A stretch of 64,000 nt of DNA from an uncultured Desulfobacterales bacterium (lineage in GTDB: Bacteria; Desulfobacterota; DSM-4660; Desulfatiglandales; HGW-15): NCBI GenBank assembly GCA_964450535.1, contig CAYVDE010000004.1, positions 9,083 through 73,082 on the forward strand. The letters run 5' to 3'. Positions 17,704 to 47,926 of this stretch are shown piece after piece. Each line of letters starts with the position of its first letter. The stretch's first letter is position 1. Both the position numbers and the translations under genes were made by a program. A model generated the notes under the pieces. It made no database searches. It was not told the origin of the DNA and worked only from the letters and a program-made list of their open reading frames with translations.

Positions 17704-18963
17704 ATGAAGTCATATAAGACGGTGAACCACCGGGATGTTCCTCTGTTCAAGGATGTGCCTGATGAGGATTGGAACGACTGGAAGTGGCAGTTCCGGAATA
17801 CTATTCGAGACCTCAACGCCCTTGAGAAGATCATTCGCATAGATGAGGACGAGGGGCGTGACCTCGAGAGAGTCCTTAAGACCTTCAGAATGAGTATCAC
17901 GCCTTACTATGCCTGCCTGATGGATCGTGAATACAGGCGCGGCTCCGTAAGGCTTCAAGGCGTGCCGAGCATTCACGAACTGGCCTACGATCCCGACGAT
18001 CACGAAGACCCCCTGGATGAGGACGTGGACTCCCCGGTCCCCGGCATCACCCACCGCTATCCCGACAGGGTCCTGTTCCTGGTCACCCGCATCTGCTCCA
18101 TGTACTGCCGTCACTGCACGCGGAGGCGCATGGTCGGTTCACAGGACGAGCATTTGAGCGGCAAGGACATGGAAAGGGCTTTTGCTTACATCGAGGATCA
18201 TTCTGAGATCCGTGACATACTGATTTCAGGAGGGGATCCTCTGGTCCTTGACGACGAGTCCCTTGAGGCAATACTTAAACGCCTGCGCAGGATCGATCAC
18301 GTGGAGATCATACGAATCGGCAGCCGCACGCCGGTGGTCCTGCCCCAGAGGATCACGGAAGACCTGGTAAGCATGCTGCGCAGGTATCATCCTCTATACC
18401 TTAACACGCACTTCAACCACCCGGCCGAGATAACCCGGGAGTCCAGGGACGCCTGTGCACGGCTCGCAGATGCGGGCATTCCCCTGGGCAACCAGACAGT
18501 CCTCTTGAGGGATGTCAACGACTGCCCGTACATTATGAAAAAACTGGTTCACGAACTCCTCATGATCCGCGTGAAGCCTTACTACATTTACCAGTGCGAC
18601 CTTTCCAGGGGCATAGCGCACTTCAGGACGTCCATCACCAAGGGCATGGAGATTATAGAAAACCTGCGCGGTCACACCACGGGCATGGCCGTGCCCACAT
18701 TTGTGGTCGACGCCCCGGGCGGTGGCGGTAAGATTCCTGTCATGCCGAATTATATCCTCTCACAGGGCGACCGCCGTCTCGTGCTTCGCAATTACGAGGG
18801 TGTGATCACGACCTACACGCAGCCTGAGAACGTTTTTTCGGATTGCGGTCATTGTAACATCTGCGAGGATGAACGATATAAGCCCCTGGACGGGGTGGCG
18901 AAACTGCTTGCCGGGGAAAAGCTTTATCTCGAGCCCGCGGAACTCAAAAGGCGCAGGAGATAG
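17704..18963 (+). CDS. kamA: L-lysine 2,3-aminomutase (radical SAM/PLP)
   Basis: The cluster motif CSMYCRHC is at nt 18094-18117. ISGGDPL, the PLP-lysine block VVDAPGGGGK and a C-terminal Zn Cys cluster are also present. Acidic residues sit at both positions I recall as binding the lysine epsilon-amine in LAM (the D in VND and the D in VVDAP). Confidence 0.9.
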   Translation: MKSYKTVNHRDVPLFKDVPDEDWNDWKWQFRNTIRDLNALEKIIRIDEDEGRDLERVLKTFRMSITPYYACLMDREYRRGSVRLQGVPSIHELAYDPDDHEDPLDEDVDSPVPGITHRYPDRVLFLVTRICSMYCRHCTRRRMVGSQDEHLSGKDMERAFAYIEDHSEIRDILISGGDPLVLDDESLEAILKRLRRIDHVEIIRIGSRTPVVLPQRITEDLVSMLRRYHPLYLNTHFNHPAEITRESRDACARLADAGIPLGNQTVLLRDVNDCPYIMKKLVHELLMIRVKPYYIYQCDLSRGIAHFRTSITKGMEIIENLRGHTTGMAVPTFVVDAPGGGGKIPVMPNYILSQGDRRLVLRNYEGVITTYTQPENVFSDCGHCNICEDERYKPLDGVAKLLAGEKLYLEPAELKRRRR

Positions 18964-18985
18964 TGAAAACTGAAAAGGAGTGAAC

Positions 18986-24009: not shown

Positions 24010-24011
24010 AA

Positions 24012-25433: not shown

Positions 25434-27052
25434 CGGCTGAACACCACCCGCCCGTCGAAGATGGTCATGTCCACGGAGGTCTCGATGATCTCCATGGGGT
25501 CCACGGAGAAGATGTCCCTGTCCAGGACGACCATGTCCGCCCGTTTTCCGGGTGAAATTGTTCCCAGTTCACCTGTAACGCCGTTCGCCTCCGCCGGTGC
25601 CAGGGTATAGCCGCGGACCGCTTCCTCCACGCTTATCCTTTCACGGGGGTACCATCCCCCTTCGGGGGAGCCGTCCCGCCGTTGACGGGTGACGGCCGCG
25701 TGGATGCCCACGAGCGGTCGCGGATCACAGACCGGCGAATCAGAGCTTAGCATGAGCGGAATACCGGCATCCAGCATGCTCCGATACGCGTAGGTCCATT
25801 GTCCCATTTCTCCTACGCAACTATCTATCATGTGGATGTCCAGAATCAAGTTATGTGGCTGCACACAACCCACCAGGTTTAGACGCGCCATGCGGTAAAG
25901 GTCCTCAGGCCGAATCATCTGTAGGTGCTCGATTCGGTGTGGGACGGCGGGGCGTGATGCGGGATCAATATCCTCAAAGGCTTTATCCCGTTTCACCGCC
26001 TCGAAAACTGAAATCAATTCCCGGTTGGCCCGGTCTCCTATTGCGTGAACCATGACGGCGAGCCCGGCCCGGTTCGCTTTAGTGATCCGTTCACGTAAGG
26101 CTTCCGGCGGGTAGAGGCTCATGCCCACACCACCATCCAGGTATGGGTCGATCATCCATGCGGTGCGCGCCCCCATTCCGCCGTCCATGAAGTATTTGAG
26201 GTGTCCCAACCTGAGTCTATCGTCTCCTAAGCCTGTGCGGATACCCAGGGCTTCCGCCTCATCCAGGCGTTCACCAGGAAGGCTCACCCAGCACCGCAGG
26301 TCCAGCTTTCCTTGCTCCCTGATCTGCTGCCAGGCGCGAAGGACGGGCGGCCCTTCCAGTCCTCCCATGAGCCGGACGTCGAATATCCCGGTCAACCCAT
26401 AGGAGTGGACTTCGGGAATGCCGTCCAGCATGGCCTCGTATACCCCGGCGGTGCCTGCCCTGTCTATGGCCGCCTTGATCAGGTTGGGAGCCAACTCACG
26501 GAGGATGCCGGTGGCACTTCCCGAGGTGTCCCTTGCAATGACGCCGGCGGGCGGGTCGGGCGTGCTGTCGTCGATGCCGGCCTCCTTCAGAGCGACTGAG
26601 TTGACCGTGGCCAGGTGAAGGTCACATCGCCAGAGCGCCACGGGGTGATCCGGCGCTACTCGGTCCAGGTCATGGCGTTCGGGCATGTGTTCGACTTCCC
26701 AGTCCGACTCGTTCCAGCCCTGTCCCACGATCCAGGCTCCCTGTGGAAGGTTGCGGGCGGCCTCCGCTACACGGTTTAAGAGGTCCTCCAGCGAGACCGT
26801 GTCGGCCAGGTTGAGCTGCTTCCGTCCCATGGACCAATCATAATAGTGGAAGTGGCTGTCCGTGAAGCCGGGCAGGACAAGCCTTCCTTCTAAGTCCTGG
26901 GTCTTGGTTCCGGATCGGGAGAGCGACGCTATTTCAGAGTTATCTCCTACGGCCAGGATCCGGCCGTTGCCCATGGCCACTGCCTGGGCCAGGGGGCGGG
27001 AAGGGTCCATGGTTCGAATGACTGCGTTTTGGAAGATGCGTTCCGGTTTCAT
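25430..27052 (-). CDS. Amidohydrolase (amidohydrolase-3 / YtcJ-like metal-dependent hydrolase)
   Basis: The N-terminal metal motif PGFTDSHFHY is present. It is 540 aa long with family-typical architecture. Confidence 0.8.
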   Translation of the reverse strand: MKPERIFQNAVIRTMDPSRPLAQAVAMGNGRILAVGDNSEIASLSRSGTKTQDLEGRLVLPGFTDSHFHYYDWSMGRKQLNLADTVSLEDLLNRVAEAARNLPQGAWIVGQGWNESDWEVEHMPERHDLDRVAPDHPVALWRCDLHLATVNSVALKEAGIDDSTPDPPAGVIARDTSGSATGILRELAPNLIKAAIDRAGTAGVYEAMLDGIPEVHSYGLTGIFDVRLMGGLEGPPVLRAWQQIREQGKLDLRCWVSLPGERLDEAEALGIRTGLGDDRLRLGHLKYFMDGGMGARTAWMIDPYLDGGVGMSLYPPEALRERITKANRAGLAVMVHAIGDRANRELISVFEAVKRDKAFEDIDPASRPAVPHRIEHLQMIRPEDLYRMARLNLVGCVQPHNLILDIHMIDSCVGEMGQWTYAYRSMLDAGIPLMLSSDSPVCDPRPLVGIHAAVTRQRRDGSPEGGWYPRERISVEEAVRGYTLAPAEANGVTGELGTISPGKRADMVVLDRDIFSVDPMEIIETSVDMTIFDGRVVFSR

Positions 27053-28086
27053 GGAAGAAAGCCTCCGGGAAAGGGATCGTCGGGTTCGATGTAAAAGGAG
27101 TGTAGGCCTGTTATGTGTGCGCTTCCACGGATTTCGATCACCACAGCAGGCACACCTCCTACATCTGTTTCAGTGACAATGCGCGCCTTGAACACTGTCC
27201 CGAGCGGGCTCGTGTTTTCGTAGATCCGGTCGATCCCGATTTTACCCCGCTGGTATAAAAGCGTCAGCTTGGCAGCCGTACCCGTCCCGCAAGGTGACCT
27301 GTCCATATGTCGTTCGCCGTATATCACCATGCTTTTCCCGCAAAGTGGACGCTCTGAATCTTCCTCGTAGAACTCCACCACATCCACCGTTGATACCTCA
27401 GGCCGCGTCGGATGGTGAACCTCCAGTTGTTGATCGGCGCTTTCAATGATAGTCATGCCCAGGTCTACGAGCCGCCTCGTGTTTTCCGGGGTGAGTGAAA
27501 GGCCTGTTCGTCGGATCGGGACCATCACGAAAAATCCACCCACGCAGACCGTGTCCACTTCTATACTCCCGAGACCCGGTACATCCAGAGTTTGGTCCAG
27601 GCCGTAAACGAATGACGGCACAGCCTGAATGGCAACCGACTCCACTTGCCCTTCACGGATACGAGCAAGGGCATCCATCGGACCGGAGGGAGTGTCTATG
27701 GTAATCGCGGTTTCGGGATCGCGCCGGTCGATGACCTCCGTGTCGAGAAGAGTGGTGACCGCGCCGATGGTGGCGTGCCCGCAGAGATACGGATAGCGCC
27801 GGGCGTCCATGTATATGAGACCGAAGGACGCCCCATCGGTCACCGGGTCTGTGATGGCGGCGGCTATCATGTCCCGGTGCCCTCTTGGTTCCCGCGTGAG
27901 CAGGAGACGCACATGGTCCAGGTTTTCCATGAAGTAGCGTCGTTTCTCCGCCATTGTGGAACCGGGTACTTCGCCGAATCCGCCCACAATAAGCCGGGTC
28001 GGTTCACCGGCGGTGTGGGAGTCAATGGTCACAAAAGGTTCGGGGAACCTTCGGGCCAGGGTCAGCCTTGCGCGATTGATATCCAT
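27049..28086 (-). CDS. Proline racemase superfamily enzyme (Cys/Cys type), paralog of 22966-24009
   Basis: The motifs DSHTAGEPTRLIVGG, YPYLCGHA and DRSPCGTGTAA are present. The shared block LLLTREPRGHRDM and the C-terminus DDPFPxGFL match the paralog. Confidence 0.85.
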   Translation of the reverse strand: MDINRARLTLARRFPEPFVTIDSHTAGEPTRLIVGGFGEVPGSTMAEKRRYFMENLDHVRLLLTREPRGHRDMIAAAITDPVTDGASFGLIYMDARRYPYLCGHATIGAVTTLLDTEVIDRRDPETAITIDTPSGPMDALARIREGQVESVAIQAVPSFVYGLDQTLDVPGLGSIEVDTVCVGGFFVMVPIRRTGLSLTPENTRRLVDLGMTIIESADQQLEVHHPTRPEVSTVDVVEFYEEDSERPLCGKSMVIYGERHMDRSPCGTGTAAKLTLLYQRGKIGIDRIYENTSPLGTVFKARIVTETDVGGVPAVVIEIRGSAHITGLHSFYIEPDDPFPGGFLP

Positions 28087-32808: not shown

Positions 32809-34620
32809 CTACCTTCCCAGAATCCGCTTCCCCAGAGCTGAGTAAATGAATCGCCGGAGTTTTTCCCTGTCCCTTCGCCCCGGCGGCTTGGTCCCTGAAA
32901 TATCGAGAGTTCGGAGAAGGCCGGAAGCGGCGATCATTTCCATTGCATGGTGGCTTTCCCTGTTTGTAAGGCCGTCCCTGCCGTTGTCGGCGGCCGCCGG
33001 GTTGAAGCGGACGTAAACGCCCCGGTTCCCGGAAGCCGCCCTGCGTAAGGCCCGGCGGGTCACCTCCCGGATACCCAGGAGATCCACATCCTCCATAGTG
33101 TACGATTCTATTCTGAACCTGCGGATGATTTCCGCGTCCTTTTCCTCCGCGTCCCGCAGGCAGAGAAATATCAGGCTTTCCGGTGAAACGCGTGCGAACG
33201 GCTTATGTTCTGATGGTTCCGATGAAGCCGTCGTGCTCGAGGGAGGGGCCAGGTCCTCCCGGCCCAAAAGGTCGAATGGAAAGTCGGGGAAGGGGCTGAT
33301 CCAGATCATCCCCGGCGGGTCGCCTGCAGCGGCCATGGCTGCATACAGGGGTTTTGTAAGAGGTTCGGTGCCGCCGGCGATTATGCAGTCCTTGTCCGGC
33401 CGCAACTCGGGTATTTCCGGTTTGAGCGCTTTAATAAAAATTCGTTCCGCGTAGCCGAGCTTCTCCAGTTCGTTCCACTTTTCCTGATTCCTGAACAGAG
33501 GATCGTCCCCCAGAAAAACGATGCGCACCCCGTGGGGGGAAAAGCGGTCGCCACCAACAGGGCGCTTTTCCACATACGACGAGGTCATGGCCGATAGAAG
33601 AGCCGAGTAGGAGAGGTTGAAGGTAATGACGTCTCCCAGATCCAGCTCTCCCGGATATTCAGTCACATCGAGGATCAGGTGGTCACTCGAGGCGCCCAGA
33701 ACGGAAATCCCCGGCTCCGCCGGTTCGAGCCCGCTTACATCCACATCTTCCCGCCCGATATTGAGAATCGCCCGGAGCATCTCCCCTTTGTCAGAAAATT
33801 CGGGTGTTCCGCCGAATGCGTCCTGGCCTGTCTCGCCGATCGGCATCGACGGTTTCCTTTTCAGTTCGATGACTTCCCCGGAGAGGAGAAACGCATCCTG
33901 GACCGTTCCCGGCCAGCATGTCCTGTTGATGGTCTCACGCCCCAGAAGGATGGCCTCGCCTATCCGGAGATGATTTATTTCCGGGGGCATTCTTCCGGAA
34001 GCAAGAAGCGGCAGGGATGAGGAGTTTCCGCCTGAAATAGTTTCGATCGGGATTCCGAACGTGTCCTCTATCCTGCGGGCCCAGTCGACCAGTTCCTGCA
34101 TGTTTTTTCGCGTCGGAATTACCCCGCCGTAACAGGTGAGGTTCGTGCCGATTCCCTGGATCCTGACGCCGGGAAGGTCGATGATCTCACGCACGGCCGC
34201 CATCAGGTCATCGGGCCAGAAACCTTCCCTCAGGTCCCCCAGGTCCAGCATCAGGATGATCCTGTGAATGATGCCGCGTTCTTCCGCCGCCTGGGAGAGG
34301 GCCCGGATAGCCGGGAGTTCCGAATTGAGGCTCACGTCAACCGAATTGACGATCTCTTCGGCCGCGGATACAGGCGGAATACGCAGAAGCATGATCGGCT
34401 CCAGAATTCCTCCCGCCCGGAGCCGGTGGATGTTTTCCATCCTGGATTCCCCGATCCCCGAGACTCCGCCCATGATCAGCGCTTTCGCGACTTGCGGCAT
34501 GCCGCAAGTCACTTTGGTCACGCCGGTTACCGTGACTCCATAACCAGCGCAGAGATTAGTGACCGCACGTGCGTTCGAGATAATTTTTTCAAGATCGATG
34601 GTCACGGCCGGTCCGGACAT
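32809..34620 (-). CDS. orr: Ornithine/alanine racemase-fold PLP enzyme fused to a degenerate arginase-fold C-terminal domain
   Basis: The N-terminal ~355 aa is an alanine-racemase-fold protein (VTGVTKVTCG lysine block). It sits in the position that orr occupies in the conserved ornithine cluster. The C-terminal ~245 aa is collinear with arginase/agmatinase blocks, but the Mn-ligand residues are replaced. Confidence 0.75.
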   Translation of the reverse strand: MSGPAVTIDLEKIISNARAVTNLCAGYGVTVTGVTKVTCGMPQVAKALIMGGVSGIGESRMENIHRLRAGGILEPIMLLRIPPVSAAEEIVNSVDVSLNSELPAIRALSQAAEERGIIHRIILMLDLGDLREGFWPDDLMAAVREIIDLPGVRIQGIGTNLTCYGGVIPTRKNMQELVDWARRIEDTFGIPIETISGGNSSSLPLLASGRMPPEINHLRIGEAILLGRETINRTCWPGTVQDAFLLSGEVIELKRKPSMPIGETGQDAFGGTPEFSDKGEMLRAILNIGREDVDVSGLEPAEPGISVLGASSDHLILDVTEYPGELDLGDVITFNLSYSALLSAMTSSYVEKRPVGGDRFSPHGVRIVFLGDDPLFRNQEKWNELEKLGYAERIFIKALKPEIPELRPDKDCIIAGGTEPLTKPLYAAMAAAGDPPGMIWISPFPDFPFDLLGREDLAPPSSTTASSEPSEHKPFARVSPESLIFLCLRDAEEKDAEIIRRFRIESYTMEDVDLLGIREVTRRALRRAASGNRGVYVRFNPAAADNGRDGLTNRESHHAMEMIAASGLLRTLDISGTKPPGRRDREKLRRFIYSALGKRILGR

Positions 34621-36044
34621 TATGTTTTCTCCGGGATGGTGCTTATGCGCAGGCTGCTTTTAAGAAGGGTGAGCGCGGCTTCAGGAAATTCCGCGGACAT
34701 CGCTCCCAGGCAGGCCATGGAGTAGTCTGTGTCGATAAGGACTCCGGCGTCTCCCGGCGGTGTCAGGGAATTGCCGGAGTTTTCCGAAAGGATCCTGCAC
34801 AGGATGTCCCTCCCGCCGGGAAGACGGGTCAGGGCGCCTCCGGTCCCGATCACGGTCTTTACCGCGGTCAGGTCTTTGCCCTCCACAACCCTTGTCCTTC
34901 CGGACGGACCGTACAGGTCCCGCCATACTCCCGCATGGCGGAGGAGCGCGGTCCGGGCTGCAACAAAGGTGAGTTCCTCCATCAGCCGGACTTCTTCAGC
35001 GGTTTCAGGGATCAGACCAACGGTTTCCAGGAGTTCGGCTATACGCGCGGCCGTTGTCCCGCACCTGGAGGCGAGCTCCTCCGGTGCCGAAAGCGCCGAC
35101 ACGTTGTTCCGGTTTATGAAAAGGCCGAGATCTCCTTCCACGGTCCGTTTCGCTTTGGGCTCAGGGGCCGTCTGCATCCGGGTGATTTCCTCGTTTCCCG
35201 AGGTGACCGAGTGGACGTCCGTTGTCGCACCCCCGACGTCTATGACCAGAAGATCGCCCATGTCCTCTGCAAGGAGTTCCGCTGCGAGCATCACCGCCCC
35301 GGGGGTCGGAATTATGGGTCCGTTCACCACCTCCCGGATGTGCTCCATACCCGGCGCGCGGGTGATATGTTCCTCGAAGAGCATGCGGATTACCTTCCTG
35401 GCCGGTTCCACGTTCAGCTCGTCGATGCGCGGATAGACGTTATCTATACAGCTTACCTTGATGGCGGCTTTCGTGAAGACCCTTTCAATCTCTTCCCTGT
35501 TTTCGACATTGCCGCCGTAGATGACAGGGGGTGCAAGCCCGGCTTCCTTCAGGGCCTGGGCGATGAGCCGGCTGTTTTCTAGGGCGGTTTCCCGTTCCCC
35601 GTAATCCACGCCGCCAGCAATGAGGATTATGTTAGGCCGTATTTTTATCAGGGTCTTCAGGTCCGACGGGCGGATGATGCCCGCGGTGACTTGGTGGATG
35701 TTGGCGCCCGCTCCCAGCGCGGCCTCGCGGGCGGCACGGACCGTCATATCATAGGCAAGACCGTGGACCGTCATCCTCAACCCCCCGGCGGCGCTGGAGG
35801 TGGCGAGGAACCGGCCGGCCGGCCCGGGAAGGCTCCCGTCGGGAACCGCTGTTCCAAGGGCCCTCATGCAGGCTTCCATCGCCCGGTTCAGACCGGTCCG
35901 GACATCTCCCGAATCCAGCGACGTGGGGGCATAGCCCTGTCCGAGGAACCCAGGGCCCCCGTTCGAAACCGGATCAATGCCGCATGCGTTCACTATGGTG
36001 GTCGTGCTGCCGATCTCGGCGATCAGGACGTCGAAGCGGCTCAT
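34620..36044 (-). CDS. GlmL/MutL-like ASKHA-fold protein (putative aminomutase reactivase)
   Basis: Two phosphate motifs are present (LIAEIGSTTT and VIDVGGATTDVHS). It lies between oraE and orr. Its stop overlaps the orr start (TAATG), and its start overlaps the oraE stop. Confidence 0.7.
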   Translation of the reverse strand: MSRFDVLIAEIGSTTTIVNACGIDPVSNGGPGFLGQGYAPTSLDSGDVRTGLNRAMEACMRALGTAVPDGSLPGPAGRFLATSSAAGGLRMTVHGLAYDMTVRAAREAALGAGANIHQVTAGIIRPSDLKTLIKIRPNIILIAGGVDYGERETALENSRLIAQALKEAGLAPPVIYGGNVENREEIERVFTKAAIKVSCIDNVYPRIDELNVEPARKVIRMLFEEHITRAPGMEHIREVVNGPIIPTPGAVMLAAELLAEDMGDLLVIDVGGATTDVHSVTSGNEEITRMQTAPEPKAKRTVEGDLGLFINRNNVSALSAPEELASRCGTTAARIAELLETVGLIPETAEEVRLMEELTFVAARTALLRHAGVWRDLYGPSGRTRVVEGKDLTAVKTVIGTGGALTRLPGGRDILCRILSENSGNSLTPPGDAGVLIDTDYSMACLGAMSAEFPEAALTLLKSSLRISTIPEKT

Positions 36045-38281
36045 TGTATTTTTTCACGCCGTTTTTTGACAAGAAACGTCGCCACATGGATCCCCTTCGT
36101 GCCGCGGCCGAACCCGGCGTCTACTCCCTGCCTGACCGCCGCTTCGGGGGAGACCTGCGTCCCTCCGCAGACGAGGATCAGCTGGTTCCTGACCCCCTTT
36201 TCCACGGCGATATCATGGAGGCGGCGCATGTTCTTGTAGTGAATATCGTCATGGCTTATGATCGTGGAGGCGAGGACCGCGTCCGCCTTCAGTTCCACAG
36301 CGGAGTCGATGAGCTTTTCCAGCGGAACCGATGTCCCGAGGTAATGGCATTCGATCCCCAAGCCCTCGATGCCGCCGTGCTTGATGTCGATCACTTCACG
36401 CAGCCCCACTGAATGTTCGTCGCTTCCCACTGTCCCTGCGACTATTTTCATCGGGCTTTTCCTTATTTCGGCCCGGATCTCCTCTTCGGTCATCACGTCA
36501 GGTTCCGGTGGGATGGTGAGGTCGGCAAGGTCTATGACGTGCTCGAAGCGTCCCTTGATTTCAACGCGAGTCCCCTCGGCTGGATGCATTACCTCGGTGT
36601 GTATCACCTCGGTTTCGCGCAGCCCCATGCGCGCCCCGATCTCCAGGGCCGCGGCCGAAGCTGCCCGCCTGCCGGCGGGTAGAAAGACAGTCACGTGGAC
36701 GACACCATCGCCCTGCCACTCCATCTCAGGCCTGATTTTTGTGCCCCCCCGCAGGTCCCGGGTCTCCTCCATGCGAAGGTACACATTGTCGTTCTCATCC
36801 AGCTCATCGATATAGACGATCATCTCAGGGTTTTCGAACGTGCAGCCGCCGATAAGCGAAGACGGCCCAGCGGTCCCGTTATCGCCGGCAACATCGCCCG
36901 GATCGTTTTGTGCGGGCAAACCGTACTGCGCGGTGTTGTTGTAGCCGAAATGGGCGGTTACAGGCGCCAGGTAGTCGGGATCGCGGGTGAAAATGGTGTC
37001 GGAGCCTATTCCCCCGTCAGCCTTCCGGATGATTCCGTCGCCGTTACGCCCGGGGTAGAGGCCGGAATCGACGAACATCCCTTTCTCGACCGCGGCGAAG
37101 TATCCTCCCGTTTCTATCATCTCCTCCAGGAAGAGTACCGCCCGTTCCTTCAGTTCGCGTATGGTCCCGGCCATGGGCTCATCGTGCCTGCGCAGGTTCA
37201 CGAGTTCCTTCAAGCCGTCCATGCCGTTGAAGGCCTGCCTGGCCGTGTCGGTCCCTTCAATGTTGTAGATGTGCCAGGGGACGTTACGCCCCTCATCCGG
37301 GGTTATGGTGGACTGGATGTCCGCTGATGTGAGTTCGGAGATGAGCAGATTGAGCGTATGGGTGACCGTGGCCTCCCGGGTGGAACTCGTCATGTACTTG
37401 GTGTTCTGCTGCGCCCGCATCTTGTAATCTCGGAAAAGCTCCCGCAGCGCCACAGCGTAAGGGAGGTCCAGCCGCATGCAGGGAGCGGGGGGAGCGGTAG
37501 GAGGAACCGTGGACAGGCAGATATCCTCCTTTTTCATGCCGGCCTTCACGGAAAAAGAGCAGTTCACCGCGTGCTGAACGAGAAGTTCCGGCATCACCTT
37601 CCACGCCTCCCGGGCGGTGGCGTTTGCGTTATGGGCCCCGTCGATCTGCGCCATACCGGACCAGGTCATGATCTTTTTCGCTTCGGCGGCGTCAACGAAG
37701 CTTCGAACCATGTTGACGTTCCGGTAGAGTACGTTGTACTGCGGGTCCTGGTGTGCCCCGTTTACTCCCTCCTCGGCAAAAAGCACTGCAATCTCCGGCC
37801 CGGCGACACCGCTCACGTAGGAGTGGTAGTTGATCGGCCTGCCGATCTCCTCCTCGATCAGATCGAGCGCCTTCCGCTGGGCCCGGACCTGCTTCCGTGT
37901 GATCGGAACGCCGCCGATCCCCTGCGGGGTCCCTTCCATGAGCCCGTCGATGTGGCTCTGCCCCACGGTACGGATGACCATCAGGTGGTCCGCGCCGTGC
38001 CACGCCGCCATCCGCATCCTTCGGATATCGTCTTCGAACCTGCCGGAGGCTATCTCCGTCGTTATGGTGGCGGCCGGCTGGACGTCGATGTCGCTGAAGT
38101 AGTGCGCAGCGGGCAGCGGTACGGAGTTCTCAAGGGGCTCGGAGCACTCGATATACTCGAAAGCGCCGGCGCGCAGCTTTTCTCCTTTTCCTGCGCGCCA
38201 GGTCCAGCCCCGCCGTTTCGGGCGGTAGTTTTCGAGTCCTTTGAGGATTCCTTCTATGTCGATTTTTTCTTCGGGCTTCAT
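36041..38281 (-). CDS. oraE: D-ornithine 4,5-aminomutase, large (beta) subunit, B12/PLP-dependent
   Basis: It is 746 aa long, and the N-terminus MKPEEKIDIEGILKGLENYRPKRRGWTWR is typical of OraE. The C-terminal cobalamin-binding domain carries the SDEHSVG (DxHxxG-type) motif. Confidence 0.9.
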   Translation of the reverse strand: MKPEEKIDIEGILKGLENYRPKRRGWTWRAGKGEKLRAGAFEYIECSEPLENSVPLPAAHYFSDIDVQPAATITTEIASGRFEDDIRRMRMAAWHGADHLMVIRTVGQSHIDGLMEGTPQGIGGVPITRKQVRAQRKALDLIEEEIGRPINYHSYVSGVAGPEIAVLFAEEGVNGAHQDPQYNVLYRNVNMVRSFVDAAEAKKIMTWSGMAQIDGAHNANATAREAWKVMPELLVQHAVNCSFSVKAGMKKEDICLSTVPPTAPPAPCMRLDLPYAVALRELFRDYKMRAQQNTKYMTSSTREATVTHTLNLLISELTSADIQSTITPDEGRNVPWHIYNIEGTDTARQAFNGMDGLKELVNLRRHDEPMAGTIRELKERAVLFLEEMIETGGYFAAVEKGMFVDSGLYPGRNGDGIIRKADGGIGSDTIFTRDPDYLAPVTAHFGYNNTAQYGLPAQNDPGDVAGDNGTAGPSSLIGGCTFENPEMIVYIDELDENDNVYLRMEETRDLRGGTKIRPEMEWQGDGVVHVTVFLPAGRRAASAAALEIGARMGLRETEVIHTEVMHPAEGTRVEIKGRFEHVIDLADLTIPPEPDVMTEEEIRAEIRKSPMKIVAGTVGSDEHSVGLREVIDIKHGGIEGLGIECHYLGTSVPLEKLIDSAVELKADAVLASTIISHDDIHYKNMRRLHDIAVEKGVRNQLILVCGGTQVSPEAAVRQGVDAGFGRGTKGIHVATFLVKKRREKIQ

Positions 38282-38673
38282 GGGATGTGCCTCCCTGATG
38301 AGGCTTCAGCCGTTACAAAGGACGACTCGACCTCCTCCCAGAGCTCACCCGCGGCGAGTTTCAGCCCGGCCTCGCGCAACGGGGTCTTCGTCAAAAGCGA
38401 TGCCCGGTAGACTACGTGGCCTGCTCCTTTACCTATGAGCGACCGGCCGATGCATCCGTCCACGATCGCCTTGGCCTCCATACTTGAAAACCCCATCCTC
38501 AAGAGCACCGACCGCTCGATGGAGGGCGTCGTGTGGTCCCTGGCAAGCTCGATGAGGGGGTCGGTGAGCTTATTGGACAATTCCCAGAAGCGGGCCTCCA
38601 GTTCCTCTTCTGAAAGCCGGGCGAGATGCGCGCGCCGTTTCTGAAAATCATCTCTTCTCTCGATGCCTCTCAT
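38278..38673 (-). CDS. oraS: D-ornithine 4,5-aminomutase, small (alpha) subunit
   Basis: It is 131 aa long, with RRDDFQKRRAHLARLSEEELEARFWEL...ERSVLLRMGFS. It shows 4-nt overlaps with both neighbours. Confidence 0.85.
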   Translation of the reverse strand: MRGIERRDDFQKRRAHLARLSEEELEARFWELSNKLTDPLIELARDHTTPSIERSVLLRMGFSSMEAKAIVDGCIGRSLIGKGAGHVVYRASLLTKTPLREAGLKLAAGELWEEVESSFVTAEASSGRHIP

Positions 38674-41689: not shown

Positions 41690-42487
41690 TTACTGAAATT
41701 TCCGACGCAGTTTTACAAGGTTCGGACCGTATAGTTCCGTGAGCTGCCTGCCGAAGTGGCGGTGAACCTCCGCCAGATATAGATCATGACAGATGTAGCT
41801 TTCGATTGATTGCACCAGGCCGCGGTTTTTCGTCCACACCACCTGGCAAGGGTAAGTCCCTCCGAGGGTTCCGGTGACGCAGAGCGTGGAGTCTACGACG
41901 CAGTCGAGCGTTCTTCCAAGCTCCCCGACAACCGGCATGTTCTCCGTACTGTGGAAATAGACCTCTCCGAAATCGAGTTGGGTGGTGCCGTAGAGCAGGA
42001 TAACGACCCTCGCCCCCTTCGTGTGAGCCCTTCTCAAGGGCTCTTTTAATACTTCCAACTCCTCTTCCCACAGACCGATGTAAACGGCGAGCTCCGCATT
42101 TTCTATCAGGCCGGCGGTCGTTTTCAGAGCTTCTTCGGGGTTCGGCAGATTCCAGACCGGGTCGAAATCCGAGACGAAGTTTCTCTGCTTGAGCCGTTTT
42201 TCCAGTTCCTCGGTAAACTTGTTATAATCGCGCCTCAGCTTTTCCAGCAGGTTTTTCGGAGAAAGCGGGCTGAATAGTTCGGGCTTGGTCCCGCTCGAGA
42301 TGGCAACTCCTCGCTTGATGAGTCTTCTCGTGACATCGTAAACCCGGGAATGAGGGACGCCCGAATGCCGGGAAATGGTGTAGGCGCTCGCAGGATGAAG
42401 GGAGAGGAGCGAGAGATAGACTTTCGCTTCGTATTCGGTGAACCCCATCTCCTTGAAATAATAAAGGGTTTCTTCCACATTATTCAT
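41690..42487 (-). CDS. TrmB-family transcriptional regulator
   Basis: The winged-helix N-terminus reads FTEYEAKVYLSLLSLHPASAYTISRHSGVPHSRVYDVTRRL. The start is at MNNVEE (ATG at 42487). The gene is divergent from kamD. Confidence 0.8.
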   Translation of the reverse strand: MNNVEETLYYFKEMGFTEYEAKVYLSLLSLHPASAYTISRHSGVPHSRVYDVTRRLIKRGVAISSGTKPELFSPLSPKNLLEKLRRDYNKFTEELEKRLKQRNFVSDFDPVWNLPNPEEALKTTAGLIENAELAVYIGLWEEELEVLKEPLRRAHTKGARVVILLYGTTQLDFGEVYFHSTENMPVVGELGRTLDCVVDSTLCVTGTLGGTYPCQVVWTKNRGLVQSIESYICHDLYLAEVHRHFGRQLTELYGPNLVKLRRKFQ

Positions 42488-42759
42488 AATGATCCGCCTT
42501 TTGGAATAACGGATTGTTAGATGAATCAATTATTCTCCGGTGAAGAGGGTATGTCAAGAAGACGCGGTTGCCCCTGCGCCCTTGACAGTGGTCGATGGGC
42601 CCTGGTAGAAACCACCTTATAATAGGTACAATCCCCCGTTTACAGCCCACCTGGCGCCGGCCGGGAGAAATGTCCTGGAAACCGAAGTCGAAGCTCTCTC
42701 ATTGCGGATCTAAGCGCGTTAACGGGACCTGGAAACTTTTCAGGGCAAGGAAGAACAGT

Positions 42760-44319
42760 ATGTTTGAATTGAATCTGGAAAAGGCGAAGATTGACCGGGC
42801 GCGTGAGGCCGCTGCTCGAATTGCGGCCGAAACCCTGGCGGAGATCGACGGCAAGACCACGGTTACGGTGGAACGAGCGGTCCTTCGGCTCCTGGGAGTG
42901 GAAGGGGTCACCGAGGATGGTGTGCCCTGGGTGAATGTGATTGTGGACGAACTCCTTTCCCGGGGCCTTCTGGGCAGAGGAGCCGCGGCCCCGTTCGTGA
43001 GCGCCCTCCTGGCCGAAGGAGTCTCACCGGGGGAGACTGCAGAGCGGATGGTTGAAGGAAGGATGGACCCTGGAGCTGTTCCGGCGGCCGATCCGGAAAG
43101 GCTTAGGGAGCGTATGCTTTCCCTTGCCCGCGAAGGGCTTTCGCGCATCGACCGGGCCCGCATGGACCGCGAGGAGAGGCTGGCGCGCCTGGGCCGGGGC
43201 CGGGAACCGTTGCGATACCTTATAGTGGCCACCGGGGACATACACGAAGATGCGGTCCAGGCCGGGGCGGCCGCGCGCGGAGGAGCGGACATCATCGCCG
43301 TGATCCGCCACACGGCCCAGAGCCTCCTCGATTATGTTCCGGAAGACGGGAGCATCGAGGGGGTCGGGGGAACCATCGCCAACCGTGAAAACTTCCGGGT
43401 CATGCGCGAGGCCCTGGACGAGGTCTCGGAGGAGCTGGGAAGGTATGTTTACCTGACCAACTACTGCTCGGGCCTGTGCATGCCCGAGATGGCCGTGCTG
43501 GGGGCCCAGGAACGGCTGGACGTGATGCTCAACGACTCCATGTACGGCGTGATCTTCCGGGACATCAACATGGTCAGGACGTTTATCGATCAGCATTTCT
43601 CCCGCGCCCTGCTGGCCAGGGCCGGCATGATGATCAACACGGGAGAGGACAACTACCTCACCACCTCCGATGCGTTCGAAAAGGCCCATACCGTTCTGGC
43701 GAGCCAGTTTATCAACGAGCAGTTCGCCCTCAAGAGCGGTCTTGCGCCCCGGCAGATCGGCCTGGGCCATGCCTTCGAGATTTCGCCCAAGCTCGAAGAC
43801 AGCTTCCTGTACGAGCTGGCCCAGGCCATGATGGTGCGCCGGATCTTCGCCGATTGCCCGGTCAAGTACATGCCGCCCACCAAGTACATGACCGGTAACA
43901 TCTTTCAGGGCAACGTGCAGAACGCCTTGTTCAACGCGGTCTCCGTGCTTACGGATCAGAGCGTGCATCTTCTGGGCATGCCCACCGAGGCAATTCACAC
44001 GCCGCACGTGCATGACCGTCACCTGAGCCTCGAGAACGTGGATTACGTCTTCAGGGCCATGAGGCACCTGGGCGAGGACATCATGTTCCGGCCGGGAGGG
44101 CGGGTGGAGTCCCGTGCCCGCAAGGTCCTCGCCGATGCGGTGGCCATGCTCGAGGACGTTGCCGGGATGGGCCTGATGGAGGCCATCTCCAAGGCCATGT
44201 TCGCGGACATCGCAAGGACCCGCGAAGGCGGCAAGGGGCTCGAGGGCGTGGTGTCCAAGGCCGATGGTTACTGTAATCCTGTTTCAGACCTCCTTGAGGA
44301 GGAAAGGGCTGCGTCATGA
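42760..44319 (+). CDS. kamD: Lysine 5,6-aminomutase, alpha subunit
   Basis: It is about 519 aa long, starting MFELNLEKAKIDRAREAAARIA (ATG at 42760), and is typical of the family. It shows a 4-nt ATGA overlap with kamE. Confidence 0.9.
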   Translation: MFELNLEKAKIDRAREAAARIAAETLAEIDGKTTVTVERAVLRLLGVEGVTEDGVPWVNVIVDELLSRGLLGRGAAAPFVSALLAEGVSPGETAERMVEGRMDPGAVPAADPERLRERMLSLAREGLSRIDRARMDREERLARLGRGREPLRYLIVATGDIHEDAVQAGAAARGGADIIAVIRHTAQSLLDYVPEDGSIEGVGGTIANRENFRVMREALDEVSEELGRYVYLTNYCSGLCMPEMAVLGAQERLDVMLNDSMYGVIFRDINMVRTFIDQHFSRALLARAGMMINTGEDNYLTTSDAFEKAHTVLASQFINEQFALKSGLAPRQIGLGHAFEISPKLEDSFLYELAQAMMVRRIFADCPVKYMPPTKYMTGNIFQGNVQNALFNAVSVLTDQSVHLLGMPTEAIHTPHVHDRHLSLENVDYVFRAMRHLGEDIMFRPGGRVESRARKVLADAVAMLEDVAGMGLMEAISKAMFADIARTREGGKGLEGVVSKADGYCNPVSDLLEEERAAS

Positions 44320-45062
44320 ATGAGCGGATTGACCCGGTTACGCCTTACGGAGATACGCGCGGGGACGGCGCGGTCCAGCTTTCCTTCACCCTTCCCGTAC
44401 CGTCCGGGGAAAAGGCCAGGCAGGCCGCCCTTATACTCGCAGCCAAGATGGGTCTGCAGGAAGCCAGGGTGGTATTGATGGATCCCATTGATCCGGCTTT
44501 CACCTATTTTATCCTGTACGGGCGCACTCGGGAGTCCGTGGACTTTTCTTCTATTCAGGTTCACGAGGCGGCTTACGAGGTAATGGCGCCGGATGAAATC
44601 AACCGGTTTATTCACGAGACATTCGGAAGAAAGCTCGTGGTGATCGGGGCGTGCATCGGGAGCGACGCACACACCGTGGGAATCGACGCCATCATGAACA
44701 TGAAGGGTTATGACATGCACAAAGGCCTGGAGAGCTACCCCCGGATCCGGGCCCTCAACCTGGGCGCTCAGGTGCCCTGCGAGACGCTTGTGGCCAGGGC
44801 CATGGAGGAGAATGCCGACGCTGTGCTGGTTTCACAGGTGGTCACGCAGAAAAACGCCCACCTGAAGAATCTCACGCGCCTTATAGAGATCCTGGAGGCG
44901 GAGAACGTAGCCGAGGAGATGGTACTGGTTGTCGGAGGGCCCCAGGTGACGCAGGAGCTGGCAAAAGAACTGGGATACGACGCAGGCTTCGGAAGGGGTA
45001 CCCACCCTGAGCATGTGGCCTCTTTTCTGGTCCAGGAGCTTGCCAGGCGGAAGAAGGGATAA
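44316..45062 (+). CDS. kamE: Lysine 5,6-aminomutase, beta subunit (cobalamin/PLP-binding)
   Basis: The B12-binding motif GSDAHTVG is present, in a Rossmann-like domain. It is 248 aa long. Confidence 0.9.
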   Translation: MNERIDPVTPYGDTRGDGAVQLSFTLPVPSGEKARQAALILAAKMGLQEARVVLMDPIDPAFTYFILYGRTRESVDFSSIQVHEAAYEVMAPDEINRFIHETFGRKLVVIGACIGSDAHTVGIDAIMNMKGYDMHKGLESYPRIRALNLGAQVPCETLVARAMEENADAVLVSQVVTQKNAHLKNLTRLIEILEAENVAEEMVLVVGGPQVTQELAKELGYDAGFGRGTHPEHVASFLVQELARRKKG

Positions 45063-45064
45063 AC

Positions 45065-45880
45065 ATGGAAAAACTGATCATCACCGCGGCTTTGGTGGGA
45101 GCTGAACTCACCCGCAGTGACACGCCCTATCTTCCGCTGACGCCTGCGGAGATAGCCGAGGAGGCCTCTCGGGCCTGCAACGCCGGGGCGTCCGTATTGC
45201 ACCTTCACGCCCGGGACGGGGAGGGGAATCCCACCCAGGACAGGGAGGCATACCGGGAGATAATCAACAGGGTAAGGGAACGCTGCGATGCAGTGATCCA
45301 AGTCTCCACGGGCGGAGCTGTGGGCATGAGCCCGGAGGAGCGGCTTCAACCGGTCTCCCTCGGTCCTGAGATGGCCAGCCTGACAGCCGGAACGGTGAAC
45401 TTCGGGGACGAGGTCTTCCACAACCCGCGGGACCTCATGGTCCGCTTTGCCGAGGCCATGCGTGAGCACGGGGTGAAACCGGAGATCGAGATATTCGACG
45501 CAGGCATGGTGGCCAATGCCTTGTGGCTGCTTCGAAAAGGGCTTGTGGATGAACCCCTCCACTTTGATTTCGTGCTGGGCGTGCCGGGGGCGCTTCCCGG
45601 GAGCATGAAGAACCTTCTCTATCTTTCGGAATCCATACCTCCGGGTTCCACCTGGTCCGTGGCCGGAATAGGCCCGAACCAGCTTCCCATGGCCGCGGCC
45701 GCGGTCATAATGGGCGGGCACGCCAGGGTAGGGCTGGAGGACAACATTTTTTACAGGAAGGGTGAGAAGTCAGAGGGAAACGCTCCGCTGGTGGAACGTG
45801 TCGTCCGCATCGCACGGGAACTCGAGCGGGAAGTGGCCTTACCGCAAGAGGCGCGGGCGATTCTGGGAATCGGTAGATGA
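45065..45880 (+). CDS. kce: 3-keto-5-aminohexanoate cleavage enzyme (BKACE/DUF849 family)
   Basis: The sequence MEKLIITAALVGAELTRSDTPYLPLTPAEIAEEA...LHLHARD is present, at family-typical length (271 aa). Confidence 0.85.
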   Translation: MEKLIITAALVGAELTRSDTPYLPLTPAEIAEEASRACNAGASVLHLHARDGEGNPTQDREAYREIINRVRERCDAVIQVSTGGAVGMSPEERLQPVSLGPEMASLTAGTVNFGDEVFHNPRDLMVRFAEAMREHGVKPEIEIFDAGMVANALWLLRKGLVDEPLHFDFVLGVPGALPGSMKNLLYLSESIPPGSTWSVAGIGPNQLPMAAAAVIMGGHARVGLEDNIFYRKGEKSEGNAPLVERVVRIARELEREVALPQEARAILGIGR

Positions 45881-46887
45881 GCCTGTGGGACGCGGTCCGT
45901 CGGAGCGGGTGCCGTTCTGTGGCCGTTTTCGGCATGGCCAAGAACGCGGGTAAGACCGTGGCCCTCAACCACCTGGTCGACGCCGCCGGCAGGGAAGGGG
46001 TCTCCCTGGGCCTGACCTCGATCGGCAGGGACGGTGAGGCGTGGGACGTGCTCATTCACCGCCGGAAGCCGTCGATTCATGTGGCTGAAGGTACCCTGCT
46101 GGCCACGGCCGAGGCATGCCTGAAGGCTGGAACGGCCCGGCTCGAGACCCTGGAGACATCCGATATCGCCACACCGCTGGGGCCTGTTCACATAGCCAGG
46201 GTTGAACAATCCGGCCGCGTGGAGGCGGCTGGACCCAGCCGGGTTGAACAGCTTCGCAAAATGGTGGGACGGCTCTTCCACCTCGGCGCGTCATTGGTCC
46301 TGGTGGACGGCGCCATTGACCGGAGGGGTCCAGCTTCCCCGCGGGTGACCGAGGGATGCATCCTGGCCACAGGGGCGATCCTGAGCGAGGACCAAGGTGA
46401 GGCGCTCCGCCTCACAGTGGAGCGCGTCAGGCAGATTACCCTGCCCCTGGCCTCCGAGGAAGACCGTCTGCAGTGGAAGGCGGGCCGTCTTGTGGTGAGG
46501 ATGGGCGGGCGGACTGAATCCTTTGCCGCTTCCGAGGCCCTGAAGGAGGATTCGGAAATCCGATCCATGATTCGAGGCTCCGAGGTCAAGGTCCTGGCAG
46601 GGGGGGCACTGACGGATCATCTCCTGAGAGGGTTCGTCGGAGAGCGCGCCCGGATCGTGGTTCGTGACCCGACATGTGTCTTTGTGGATGATCGACTTCT
46701 CCGGCGATTCGTAAAGGCCGGAGGGCGCGTCGAGGTGCTTGAACCTCTCAATCTCATTGCCGTCACCGTGAATCCCGTATCTTTGGAGGGATGGTCATTC
46801 GACGCGGAGAGTTTTTTCAGGGCCTTCAGGGACGCCCTTCCCGGAGTCCCGGTGTTTGATGTGACGGCCGGCCTGGGGCCGGATTGA
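45877..46887 (+). CDS. Uncharacterised protein with a BioD/CobQ-like (SIMIBI-type) P-loop, embedded in the lysine operon
   Basis: The N-terminal sequence VAVFGMAKNAGKTVALNHL follows the GxxxxxGKT spacing seen in BioD/CobB-type loops. Its start overlaps the kce stop by 4 nt. I recognise no other domain. Confidence 0.6.
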   Translation: MSLWDAVRRSGCRSVAVFGMAKNAGKTVALNHLVDAAGREGVSLGLTSIGRDGEAWDVLIHRRKPSIHVAEGTLLATAEACLKAGTARLETLETSDIATPLGPVHIARVEQSGRVEAAGPSRVEQLRKMVGRLFHLGASLVLVDGAIDRRGPASPRVTEGCILATGAILSEDQGEALRLTVERVRQITLPLASEEDRLQWKAGRLVVRMGGRTESFAASEALKEDSEIRSMIRGSEVKVLAGGALTDHLLRGFVGERARIVVRDPTCVFVDDRLLRRFVKAGGRVEVLEPLNLIAVTVNPVSLEGWSFDAESFFRAFRDALPGVPVFDVTAGLGPD

Positions 46888-46909: not shown

Positions 46910-47926
46910 GTGGAAACGAGGAAAAATGGATGCCCGTTCGGATCTCATCGCGTGCTGGAGCCCAAAGGGACACTACCCCAGGCGGCGTGGAAACTGGACA
47001 ACACCATGGAGCCGTGGGACAATGAACTTCTTATCGACGTGGACAAGCTGAACATCGATGCAGCGAGTTTCAGGCAGATCAGGGAAGAAGCGGGCGGTGA
47101 TACGGAAAAGATCAAGGAGACCATCCTCAAGACCGTGGCGGAGCGTGGTAAACAGCACAACCCCGTGACCGGCTCGGGAGGCATGCTGCTGGGGTCCGTG
47201 AACCGTGCAGGGGAAAACTTTCCCGGCAAGGTCACCCCGGGAGAGCGGATCGCCACGCTGGTATCTCTCAGCCTGACACCCCTGCGAATCGACCGTATTC
47301 TCGAAGTGGACGAGGAACGCGACCAGGTAAGGGTCGAAGGCCTGGCCATCCTTTTTGAAAGCGGCATTTTTGCCTCTATCCCGTCGGATCTTCCCGAGGA
47401 CTTCGCCCTGGCCATGCTGGATGTGGCCGGAGCTCCGGCTCAGACGGCAAAGCTGGTCAGCCCCGGACAGACCGTGCTCGTTATCGGAGGCGGCGGAAAG
47501 TCGGGTCTCCTGTGCATGTACGAAGCCCGGAGAAGGACCGGCGTGACCGGGCGGGTTGTGGGCGTTTCCTACAGTGAGAGGGGTTGCGGCCGGATCAGGG
47601 AGTCGGGGTTCGCGGACGTGGTCCTTCAGGCGGACGCCACCCGTCCCCTGGACTTTTTTCATGCCGTCTCCGGCGCATTGAACGGGGACTTGGCGGACAT
47701 AACCATCAACTGCGTGGACGTCCCCGGCACTGAGATGGCCTCGATCCTTGCGACCAGGGAGGGGGGTACCATTTACTTCTTCAGCATGGCCACCAACTTC
47801 ACCTCGGCCGCCCTGGGCGCGGAGGGGGTGGGTAAAGACGTGCGGATGCTCATCGGCAACGGGTACACCCGAGGCCACACGGAAATAGTCTTGGACATCG
47901 CCCGAAAGGTCCGGCACATCTTCTGA
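46910..47926 (+). CDS. kdd: L-erythro-3,5-diaminohexanoate dehydrogenase
   Basis: The N-terminus reads GCPFGSHRVLEPKGTLPQAAWKLDN...NPVTGSGGMLLGSV, and a GGGGKSG nucleotide loop is present. The start is GTG at 46910, preceded by AAGGAGG. Confidence 0.8.
   Translation: METRKNGCPFGSHRVLEPKGTLPQAAWKLDNTMEPWDNELLIDVDKLNIDAASFRQIREEAGGDTEKIKETILKTVAERGKQHNPVTGSGGMLLGSVNRAGENFPGKVTPGERIATLVSLSLTPLRIDRILEVDEERDQVRVEGLAILFESGIFASIPSDLPEDFALAMLDVAGAPAQTAKLVSPGQTVLVIGGGGKSGLLCMYEARRRTGVTGRVVGVSYSERGCGRIRESGFADVVLQADATRPLDFFHAVSGALNGDLADITINCVDVPGTEMASILATREGGTIYFFSMATNFTSAALGAEGVGKDVRMLIGNGYTRGHTEIVLDIARKVRHIF

Follow-up and report, generated by a model that had tools for sequence, protein, structure and literature searches.

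A 64,000-nucleotide (nt) stretch of DNA from an uncultured Desulfobacterales bacterium (contig CAYVDE010000004.1), hereafter the window, carries a lysine-fermentation operon in which the gene kamB encodes a 336-amino-acid (aa) P-loop protein. We propose, with moderate confidence, that KamB acts in the nucleotide-dependent maintenance of the B12 cofactor on lysine 5,6-aminomutase, the adenosylcobalamin- and pyridoxal phosphate-dependent enzyme encoded by kamD and kamE (KamDE). What is observed is the family and operon membership of KamB, its near-obligate synteny with kamDE, the invariance of its nucleotide site, the predicted class of its fold, and the absence from the window of KamC, the MutS2-like protein encoded next to kamB in typical Clostridial clusters. 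An earlier note, made from the sequence alone, had described the protein as uncharacterised, as being of the BioD/CobQ type, and as a candidate aminomutase reactivase. The last of these claims is supported here and coincides with the name under which the family has been curated, the activity itself being what we infer.

The window protein matches the NCBIfam equivalog model NF052386, "lysine 5,6-aminomutase reactivase subunit KamB", with 326 bits against a cutoff of 210 (E = 2e-97), and the alignment is full-length (profile positions 1-326 of 326). Thus, the reactivase idea is not new, since NCBIfam already carries the name for the family. "Uncharacterised" remains correct for Pfam, in which no model matches the window KamB, and for the UniProt relatives, which are uncharacterised, but not for NCBIfam. 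The closest named relatives, at 83% identity, are "hypothetical protein" entries from metagenome-assembled genomes (MAGs) of Desulfatiglandales/Thermodesulfobacteriota, and one Fusibacter relative is called KamB in RefSeq and "Uncharacterized protein" in UniRef. The open reading frame (ORF) is a genuine coding sequence and not a chance frame: one search gave 512 homologues at E<=1e-3, an exhaustive one gave 2364 clusters (50% identity), and a genome scan placed relatives in the genomes of at least 593 species. All of the top 150 representatives are single full-length matches of 276-386 aa, and no fusion with KamC, KamD, or KamE was seen among these or among the top 120 homologues. We conclude that the window KamB belongs, as an ordinary member, to a known family that has been little studied, here in a KamC-less context. 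The Clostridial gene order kamA-B-C-D-E is the most plausible origin of the letters B and C; literature matches to "KamB/KamC" turned out to be 16S rRNA methyltransferases or Kamchatka and were discarded as unrelated.

The operon reads kamD-kamE-kce-kamB-kdd, with kamB two genes 3' of kamE:

42760..44319 (+): kamD, lysine 5,6-aminomutase (NF052384, 780 bits; PF09043)
44316..45062 (+): kamE, lysine 5,6-aminomutase beta (B12-binding) subunit (NF052385, 374 bits; PF02310 B12-binding)
45065..45880 (+): kce (NF052387, 426 bits)
45877..46887 (+): kamB, P-loop accessory protein of lysine 5,6-aminomutase, 336 aa (NF052386, AlphaFold2 model, synteny with kamDE)
46910..47926 (+): kdd, L-erythro-3,5-diaminohexanoate dehydrogenase (NF052381, 259 bits)

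KamD, KamE, Kce, and Kdd all score above the curated cutoffs of their NCBIfam equivalog models. The start of kamD is probably M56 of the ORF that opens at 42595 (position 42760), and the NF052384 alignment begins at residue 59 of that ORF. The genes are closely packed: the end of kamD and the start of kamE overlap by 4 nt, a 2-nt gap separates kamE from kce, the kamB ATG at 45877 overlaps the kce TGA (45878-45880) with 4 nt shared (...GGT AGA TGA GCC...), and kdd follows kamB after 22 nt, with GGAGG 8 nt ahead of its GTG start. These coordinates confirm the operon membership that the earlier note had deduced from an ATGA overlap on the kce stop and from kdd as the next gene. A search for an internal promoter or terminator that would divide the kamD-kdd operon gave nothing convincing, terminator-like sites occurring at chance level.

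Judging from its conserved residues, KamB looks built to bind, and probably to hydrolyse, a nucleotide. The loop quoted in the earlier note, VAVFGMAKNAGKTVALNHL, comprises KamB residues 15-33 (residue numbers are those of the window protein), and its G-x5-GKT spacing is as described there: G19-x5-G25-K26-T27, one residue longer than the classical Walker A. An extended P-loop of the form G-x5-GK[ST] is typical of BioD/CobQ/CbiA-type enzymes. In 40 homologues, down to 33% identity, G19-x2-K22-N23-x-G25-K26-T27-V28 is invariant. The claim that this loop is the only recognisable feature of the protein did not hold, since G50-R-D52-G53-E54 (with residue 51 free to vary), D57, K64-P65, G166, N299, and a Walker-B-like strand, hhhV-D144-G145-A-x-D-R149, are invariant in the same homologues. 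On the DNA, the features of KamB are as follows:

45931..45957 (+): Walker A loop G19-M-A-K22-N23-A-G25-K26-T27 (G-x5-GKT), from its invariance in the alignments
46024..46071 (+): loop G50-R-D52-G-E54...D57...R62...K64-P65 after strand 2, with invariant acidic residues that are candidates for Mg/water binding
46294..46323 (+): Walker-B-like strand L-V-L-V-D144-G-A-I-D-R149 (D144, G145, and R149 invariant), followed by a low-confidence loop, 149-153
46432..46887 (+): C-terminal alpha/beta domain, about residues 186-336, from the domain model, with invariant D264, T266, and N299

The motif residues (G19, K22, N23, K26, and T27 included) are equally invariant in 81 sequences from genome loci, and a second set of 47 sequences, from metagenome loci, likewise shows no variation at K26, T27, D52, E54, D144, and R149 (128 sequences in total), which bears out the conserved P-loop that the earlier note had counted on. 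The nucleotide-site residues are unchanged whether or not KamC is present in these 128 sequences. Curated names reserve the label "ATPase" for KamC, which makes the invariant site in a supposedly non-ATPase subunit worth noting; we regard it as a modest new point.

An AlphaFold2 model of KamB, built with the 40-sequence alignment, has a mean predicted local distance difference test score (pLDDT) of 91.3 and a predicted template-modelling score (pTM) of 0.89; only residues 149-153 fall below a pLDDT of 50. The model predicts two domains, an N-terminal SIMIBI-like P-loop NTPase with a beta-rich insertion and a C-terminal alpha/beta domain. When it was compared with the PDB by Foldseek, the matches were to SIMIBI P-loop NTPases alone (Wzc/Etk BY-kinases, MinD, MobB, SRP54/FtsY, ParA, CbiA, and Get3), with the CbiA structure 5ihp at rank 37 (E = 0.11). 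A profile search of PDB sequences returned nothing significant (MobB, E = 0.67). Among 40 diverse KamB members searched against Pfam at E<=1, CbiA was matched by 0/40, no DTBS, ArgK, CobW, or CobA_CobO_BtuR model was matched, and the sub-threshold grazes were to MobB (4/40) and the DUF1611 P-loop (3/40). The description "BioD/CobQ-type" is justified by the loop spacing only: there is no CbiA or DTBS match in Pfam, and the weak fold matches are spread over many SIMIBI families. On this model, KamB forms a family of its own, inside the SIMIBI class or close to it.

A separate model of the C-terminal 150 residues has a pLDDT of 89.3, and a Foldseek search of the PDB with this domain found no meaningful solved relative (best E 0.065, TM <0.4). 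The idea that the domain mimics a domain of KamDE, in the way that DdrB mimics a subunit of diol dehydratase, was rejected, as it has no B12-binding or flavodoxin-like match and no meaningful match in the PDB. Of the structural relationships suggested in the earlier note, the one to SIMIBI NTPases is seen weakly (TM ~0.3), and neither a MeaB-type likeness nor a likeness to actin/Hsp70-like (ASKHA) reactivases such as DdrA and EutA was found.

Linkage of kamB to kamDE and to kamC

To survey gene neighborhoods, the best 80 KamB-seeded loci from the scan of at least 593 species genomes, plus the window, were scored by tblastn. These loci were drawn from Desulfobacterales, many Clostridia, and 14 Promethearchaeota (Asgard) MAGs. 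kamD/kamE adjoin kamB in 78 of the 79 informative loci; in the exception (L051), kdd-kamA-kamB is followed by unrelated genes on the opposite strand. For the reverse test, we used KamD-seeded metagenome contigs, which were considered informative if they extended at least 3.5 kilobases (kb) upstream and at least 4 kb downstream (n = 35). In 29 of these, kamB lies within 10 kb, 23 with kamC and 6 without. The linkage between kamB and kamDE is very strong, although not absolute, and the co-occurrence with kamDE that the earlier note had named as a check is seen in both directions.

The 14 Promethearchaeota MAGs (L035, L040, L041, L043, L046, L049, and L050, together with L052, L056, L060, L061, L069, L079, and L080) contain lysine-fermentation clusters. 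These hold up to kce, kdd, kamA, kamB, kamD, and kamE and are partial on the shorter contigs. In the KamB tree, the Promethearchaeota proteins form one clade that is sister to a Clostridium group.

The order kdd-kamA-kamB-kamC-kamD-kamE is typical of Clostridial loci. KamC, a MutS2-like protein of 541 aa (NF052383, 636 bits), has its MutS-type ABC ATPase motifs intact (Walker A TGxNMGGKT, DE...GTNPxEG, and H459). In most loci kamB and kamC either overlap or lie 0-10 nt apart, an arrangement to be expected of genes whose products form a complex. In the 64-kb window, tblastn gave no KamC match at E<=1e-5 and only chance-level matches of at most 30 bits at E<=10; a KamC profile hidden Markov model (HMM) found nothing in the six-frame translation of the window, and no large ORF there matches KamC. 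Among the 79 KamB-seeded loci, kamC is missing from 25, at no fewer than five separate positions in the KamB tree. It is missing from 7/7 other Desulfobacterota-type loci, which share the order kamD-kamE-kce-kamB-kdd, from all 14 Asgard loci (kamA-kamB-kamD-kamE), and from three Firmicutes loci. We considered whether a substitute ATPase occupies the KamC-less loci and rejected the candidates: the ORF in the kamA-kamB gap of one Asgard locus encodes a TPR protein, and the other ORFs are unrelated.

In three Clostridium spp. loci (L062, L068, and L077), KamC-like frames of 491-505 aa lie ~600 nt after kamB. They match canonical KamC over the C-terminal ATPase half only (query ~256-539), the N-terminal half having diverged past tblastn detection.

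One KamB residue follows the presence of KamC. Position 62 (46060-46062) is T in 54/54 KamC-positive genome loci and 30/33 KamC-positive metagenome loci (84/87), compared with 1/25 KamC-negative genome loci and 0/14 KamC-negative metagenome loci (1/39), counts that are phylogenetically non-independent. In its place, Desulfobacterota have R or K (R in the window), Asgard L or F, and the remaining lineages I or L. Two further candidate positions were dropped, as R171 showed no replication and V59 only partial replication in the independent (metagenome) set; T62 alone held. The parallel loss of T62 suggests that KamC is really absent in the KamC-less lineages, and the pattern also suggests that the conserved 57-65 loop beside the nucleotide site is where KamC acts, which would make position 62 a candidate marker of the KamB-KamC interface. 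We view the KamC-less context and the covariation of T62 with KamC as modest new points.

The proposed role of KamB and its alternatives

Recombinant KamDE alone binds its cofactors, is active, and suicide-inactivates to cob(III)alamin, according to a 2014 review (PMC3958899). An activating protein, E2, was described for the beta-lysine/D-lysine mutase of Clostridium sticklandii by Baker, van der Drift and Stadtman in 1973, as related in two reviews (PMC3958899; PMC9081730), which give it as an ~80-kDa ATP-dependent protein with deoxyadenosylcobalamin (dAdoCbl) synthetase activity. The more recent of these, from 2022, refers to "another protein", a "sulfhydryl protein", behind reactivation and ATP regulation (PMC9081730). 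The 2014 and 2022 reviews give E2 no gene (PMC3958899; PMC9081730), in line with the earlier note. In lysine-fermentation clusters published in 2011, the kamB and kamC genes carry only the labels "HP" and "mutS" (Perret 2011, PMC3149608).

Within the window, the catalytic steps are assigned to other genes (KamA, KamDE, Kdd, Kce, and a probable 3-aminobutyryl-CoA aminotransferase, Kat, at 18980), which argues that KamB is an accessory factor and not a pathway enzyme. During turnover KamDE inactivates itself and keeps the oxidised cobalamin bound. We envisage that KamB, which is probably dimeric, would restore activity with the help of ATP (or GTP) bound at K26/T27/D52/E54/D144, the damaged cobalamin being either released and exchanged or re-adenosylated. 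What we infer in this scheme is that KamB hydrolyses NTPs, forms dimers, contacts KamDE, and reactivates it by such chemistry. Two chemistries are conceivable, cobalamin release/exchange, as for DdrAB and EutA, or re-adenosylation in place, at which the E2 data hint. KamB would thereby be the core of Stadtman's "E2" activating protein, which may correspond to KamB and/or KamC. The computed masses are ~72-76 kDa for a KamB dimer, ~100 kDa for KamB plus KamC, and ~62 kDa for KamC, the dimer being the best match to the ~80 kDa of E2. SIMIBI NTPases commonly act as dimers. In most Clostridia, KamB would work with the tightly coupled MutS2-like ABC ATPase KamC; in the Desulfobacterota lineage of the window, with no KamC, KamB presumably works alone.

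A stronger version of this proposal, which we hold only tentatively and judge to be less probable than its converse, is that KamB and not KamC is the catalytic core of the reactivase (E2). KamB would then be a self-sufficient dimeric P-loop NTPase in Desulfobacterota, Asgard, and some Firmicutes, and KamC a lineage-specific add-on that docks near residue 62. If this were true, KamB would stand apart in structure from both the ASKHA reactivases and the G3E chaperones, as a new class of repair factor for B12 enzymes, and would provide a minimal system for study.

Several observations weigh against the proposed role. Six of the 35 KamD-seeded loci (L100, L111, L145, L085, L116, and L128) have neither kamB nor kamC in the flank, as searched with profile HMMs in six-frame translations, and three of these (L100, L111, and L145) are complete kce-kdd-kamA-kamD-kamE clusters. 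Therefore, KamB is either not always needed or not always linked, and the accessory genes of the L100/L111/L145 group are either elsewhere in the genome or dispensable. KamC, for its part, could be encoded elsewhere in the genome of the window's bacterium, beyond the searched 64 kb. The Foldseek matches of the KamB model are weak (best E 7.9e-3, TM ~0.2-0.3, ~200 columns of 336), with none at E<=1e-3. No invariant cysteine is present in the alignments of KamB or KamC, and E2 has been called a sulfhydryl protein. Finally, our literature searches turned up no open-access experiments on KamB or KamC in the role of aminomutase factors, and the name "reactivase" is traceable here only to NCBIfam curation.

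No family with an established unrelated role matches KamB; such a match would, according to the earlier note, have spoken against its proposal. We weighed three other readings of the protein. It is unlikely that KamB is an ATP:cobalamin adenosyltransferase-like protein that rebuilds adenosylcobalamin (AdoCbl) on or for KamDE from reduced cobalamin and ATP, in place of a chaperone for release and exchange; this would be a variant of cofactor maintenance that differs in its chemistry. The invariant P-loop would suit such an enzyme, as would the fit between E2 (~80 kDa) and a KamB dimer (~76 kDa), and the CobA/BtuR class of adenosyltransferases likewise consists of dimeric P-loop proteins. However, the CobA/CobO/BtuR Pfam model is matched by 0/40 KamB members even at E<=1, no CobA structure appears in the top 50 PDB fold matches, KamB has no evident corrin-binding motif, and the historical E2 preparation may have been impure.

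A role as a loading or assembly chaperone resembling MeaB/MMAA, which would gate the first insertion of AdoCbl (or pyridoxal phosphate) into new KamDE with no part in repair, seems to us improbable. KamB does appear to be a P-loop protein of the broad SIMIBI class, to which MeaB belongs, and its gene is tightly linked to those of a B12 enzyme, but recombinant KamDE binds its cofactors and is active without an accessory protein (PMC3958899). Moreover, KamB lacks the G3E hallmarks (NKxD and the ExxG glutamate, its Walker B having Asp) and matches no ArgK/CobW Pfam model.

A third reading gives KamB no part in cofactor maintenance and takes it for an allosteric regulator through which KamDE senses ATP, or for a kinase or ligase of small molecules that works on a lysine-pathway intermediate in the manner of BioD/CobQ-type P-loop enzymes. 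We consider this very improbable; the G-x5-GKT spacing does resemble that of ligases such as dethiobiotin synthetase, but the pathway steps already have enzymes in the locus and no ligase or kinase model matches KamB. Early work on an ATP-regulated mutase complex, as cited in the 2014 review (Morley and Stadtman 1970, in PMC3958899), would favor a regulator, but ATP regulation is attributed, in the 2022 review partly, to OraS, which is reported, as cited in the 2022 review, to bind KamDE and to confer this regulation (Tseng 2007, in PMC9081730).

KamB (with KamC) is the obvious genetic candidate for E2, and the NCBI label agrees with this. Of the two, it is KamB that accompanies kamDE in bacteria and Asgard archaea alike, several lineages, that of the window among them, being without KamC. 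The KamC-less loci point to a two-component system of KamB plus KamDE, in which cofactor exchange and re-adenosylation could be directly tested against each other. A short working lifetime is a known limitation in the engineering of lysine aminomutase, for which knowledge of KamB would help.

Other genes of the window

Three further genes of the window bear on the operon or on its accessory factors:

17704..18963 (+): kamA, lysine 2,3-aminomutase, the first pathway step, 27 kb upstream (TIGR03820, 600 bits against a cutoff of 525)
34620..36044 (-): GlmL-related ornithine degradation protein, a putative ornithine-side accessory factor (NF040744, 600.4 bits against a cutoff of 600)
41690..42529 (-): TrmB-like regulator, divergent from kamD (sub-threshold TrmB-family matches)

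The intergenic region between the TrmB-like gene and the kamD ORF (42529-42595) has promoter-like sites, and the TrmB-like gene is a possible regulator of the kam operon. The second entry agrees with the earlier note, which had read a GlmL-like protein in the ornithine operon. In the same divergent operon, a 131-aa ORF (38278-38673, minus strand) encodes a putative OraS. It has no NCBIfam match and takes its label from its position upstream of oraE. As it lies ~4 kb from kamDE (42760-45062, plus strand), both aminomutase systems and their accessory proteins are clustered in the window. Next to the GlmL-related gene, a 603-aa protein (32809-34620, minus strand) has an N-terminal part like ornithine racemase (Orr; 437 bits against a cutoff of 480), while residues 477-579, towards the C terminus, weakly resemble arginase. 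The protein is possibly a fusion that feeds arginine/ornithine into the adjacent ornithine aminomutase operon.

A class-III aminotransferase (PF00202) is encoded 17 nt 3' of kamA (18980-20230, plus strand). It resembles glutamate-1-semialdehyde aminomutase below the cutoff (285 bits against 486) and is probably the HemL-like Kat that Perret 2011 (PMC3149608) places in an alternative route of lysine fermentation. The 64-kb window showed no kal gene. Just 3' of kamA and the Kat-like gene, an 816-aa protein (20358-22808, plus strand) has a KamA-family radical SAM core (residues ~116-434) that is sub-threshold for all named aminomutases, and ~380 further residues without a Pfam match. In the regions 22966-25433 (plus strand) and 25430-28086 (minus strand), two proline-racemase-like paralogues, sub-threshold for all named subfamilies, flank an MttB-superfamily methyltransferase-like gene (372 bits against the trimethylamine methyltransferase cutoff of 525) and an amidohydrolase-like gene. 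These may form a catabolic module for betaine or proline derivatives.

Comparison with known systems

The function that we propose for KamB, the ATP-dependent rescue of an AdoCbl enzyme after suicide inactivation, is that of DdrAB/GdrAB for diol/glycerol dehydratase, of EutA for ethanolamine ammonia-lyase, and of GlmL for glutamate mutase. Reactivases of the DdrA/GdrA, EutA, and GlmL type are ASKHA ATPases. KamB is unlike them: its fold matches were exclusively to P-loop NTPases, and it matches no model of the GlmL family. MeaB/MMAA, the G3E GTPase chaperone of methylmalonyl-CoA mutase, is both SIMIBI-class and dedicated to a B12 isomerase, and its logic is probably analogous to that of KamB. 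Unlike MeaB/MMAA, KamB has no NKxD/ExxG motifs, matches neither ArgK nor CobW, has an extra beta-insertion, and carries an unrelated C-terminal domain; its Walker B reads VDGAxDR, and ArgK/CobW structures are not found among its top 50 fold matches.

Other P-loop proteins share single elements with KamB. BioD and CobQ have the one-residue-longer G-x5-GKT loop, although KamB does not match the corresponding models PF13500/PF01656. With the BY-kinases Wzc/Etk, KamB has in common an acidic strand resembling Walker A' and a Walker B of the form hhhhD.

E2 of Clostridium sticklandii is an ATP-dependent auxiliary factor of the same enzyme, as KamB would be, and the mass of E2 is near that of a KamB dimer; E2 was called a sulfhydryl protein, whereas KamB has no conserved cysteine. 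The canonical Clostridial KamB (NF052386) shares with the window protein the invariant motifs and the linkage to kamDE. Clostridial clusters are arranged kdd-kamA-kamB-kamC-kamD-kamE, whereas the window has kamD-kamE-kce-kamB-kdd, no KamC, and R62 in place of T62.

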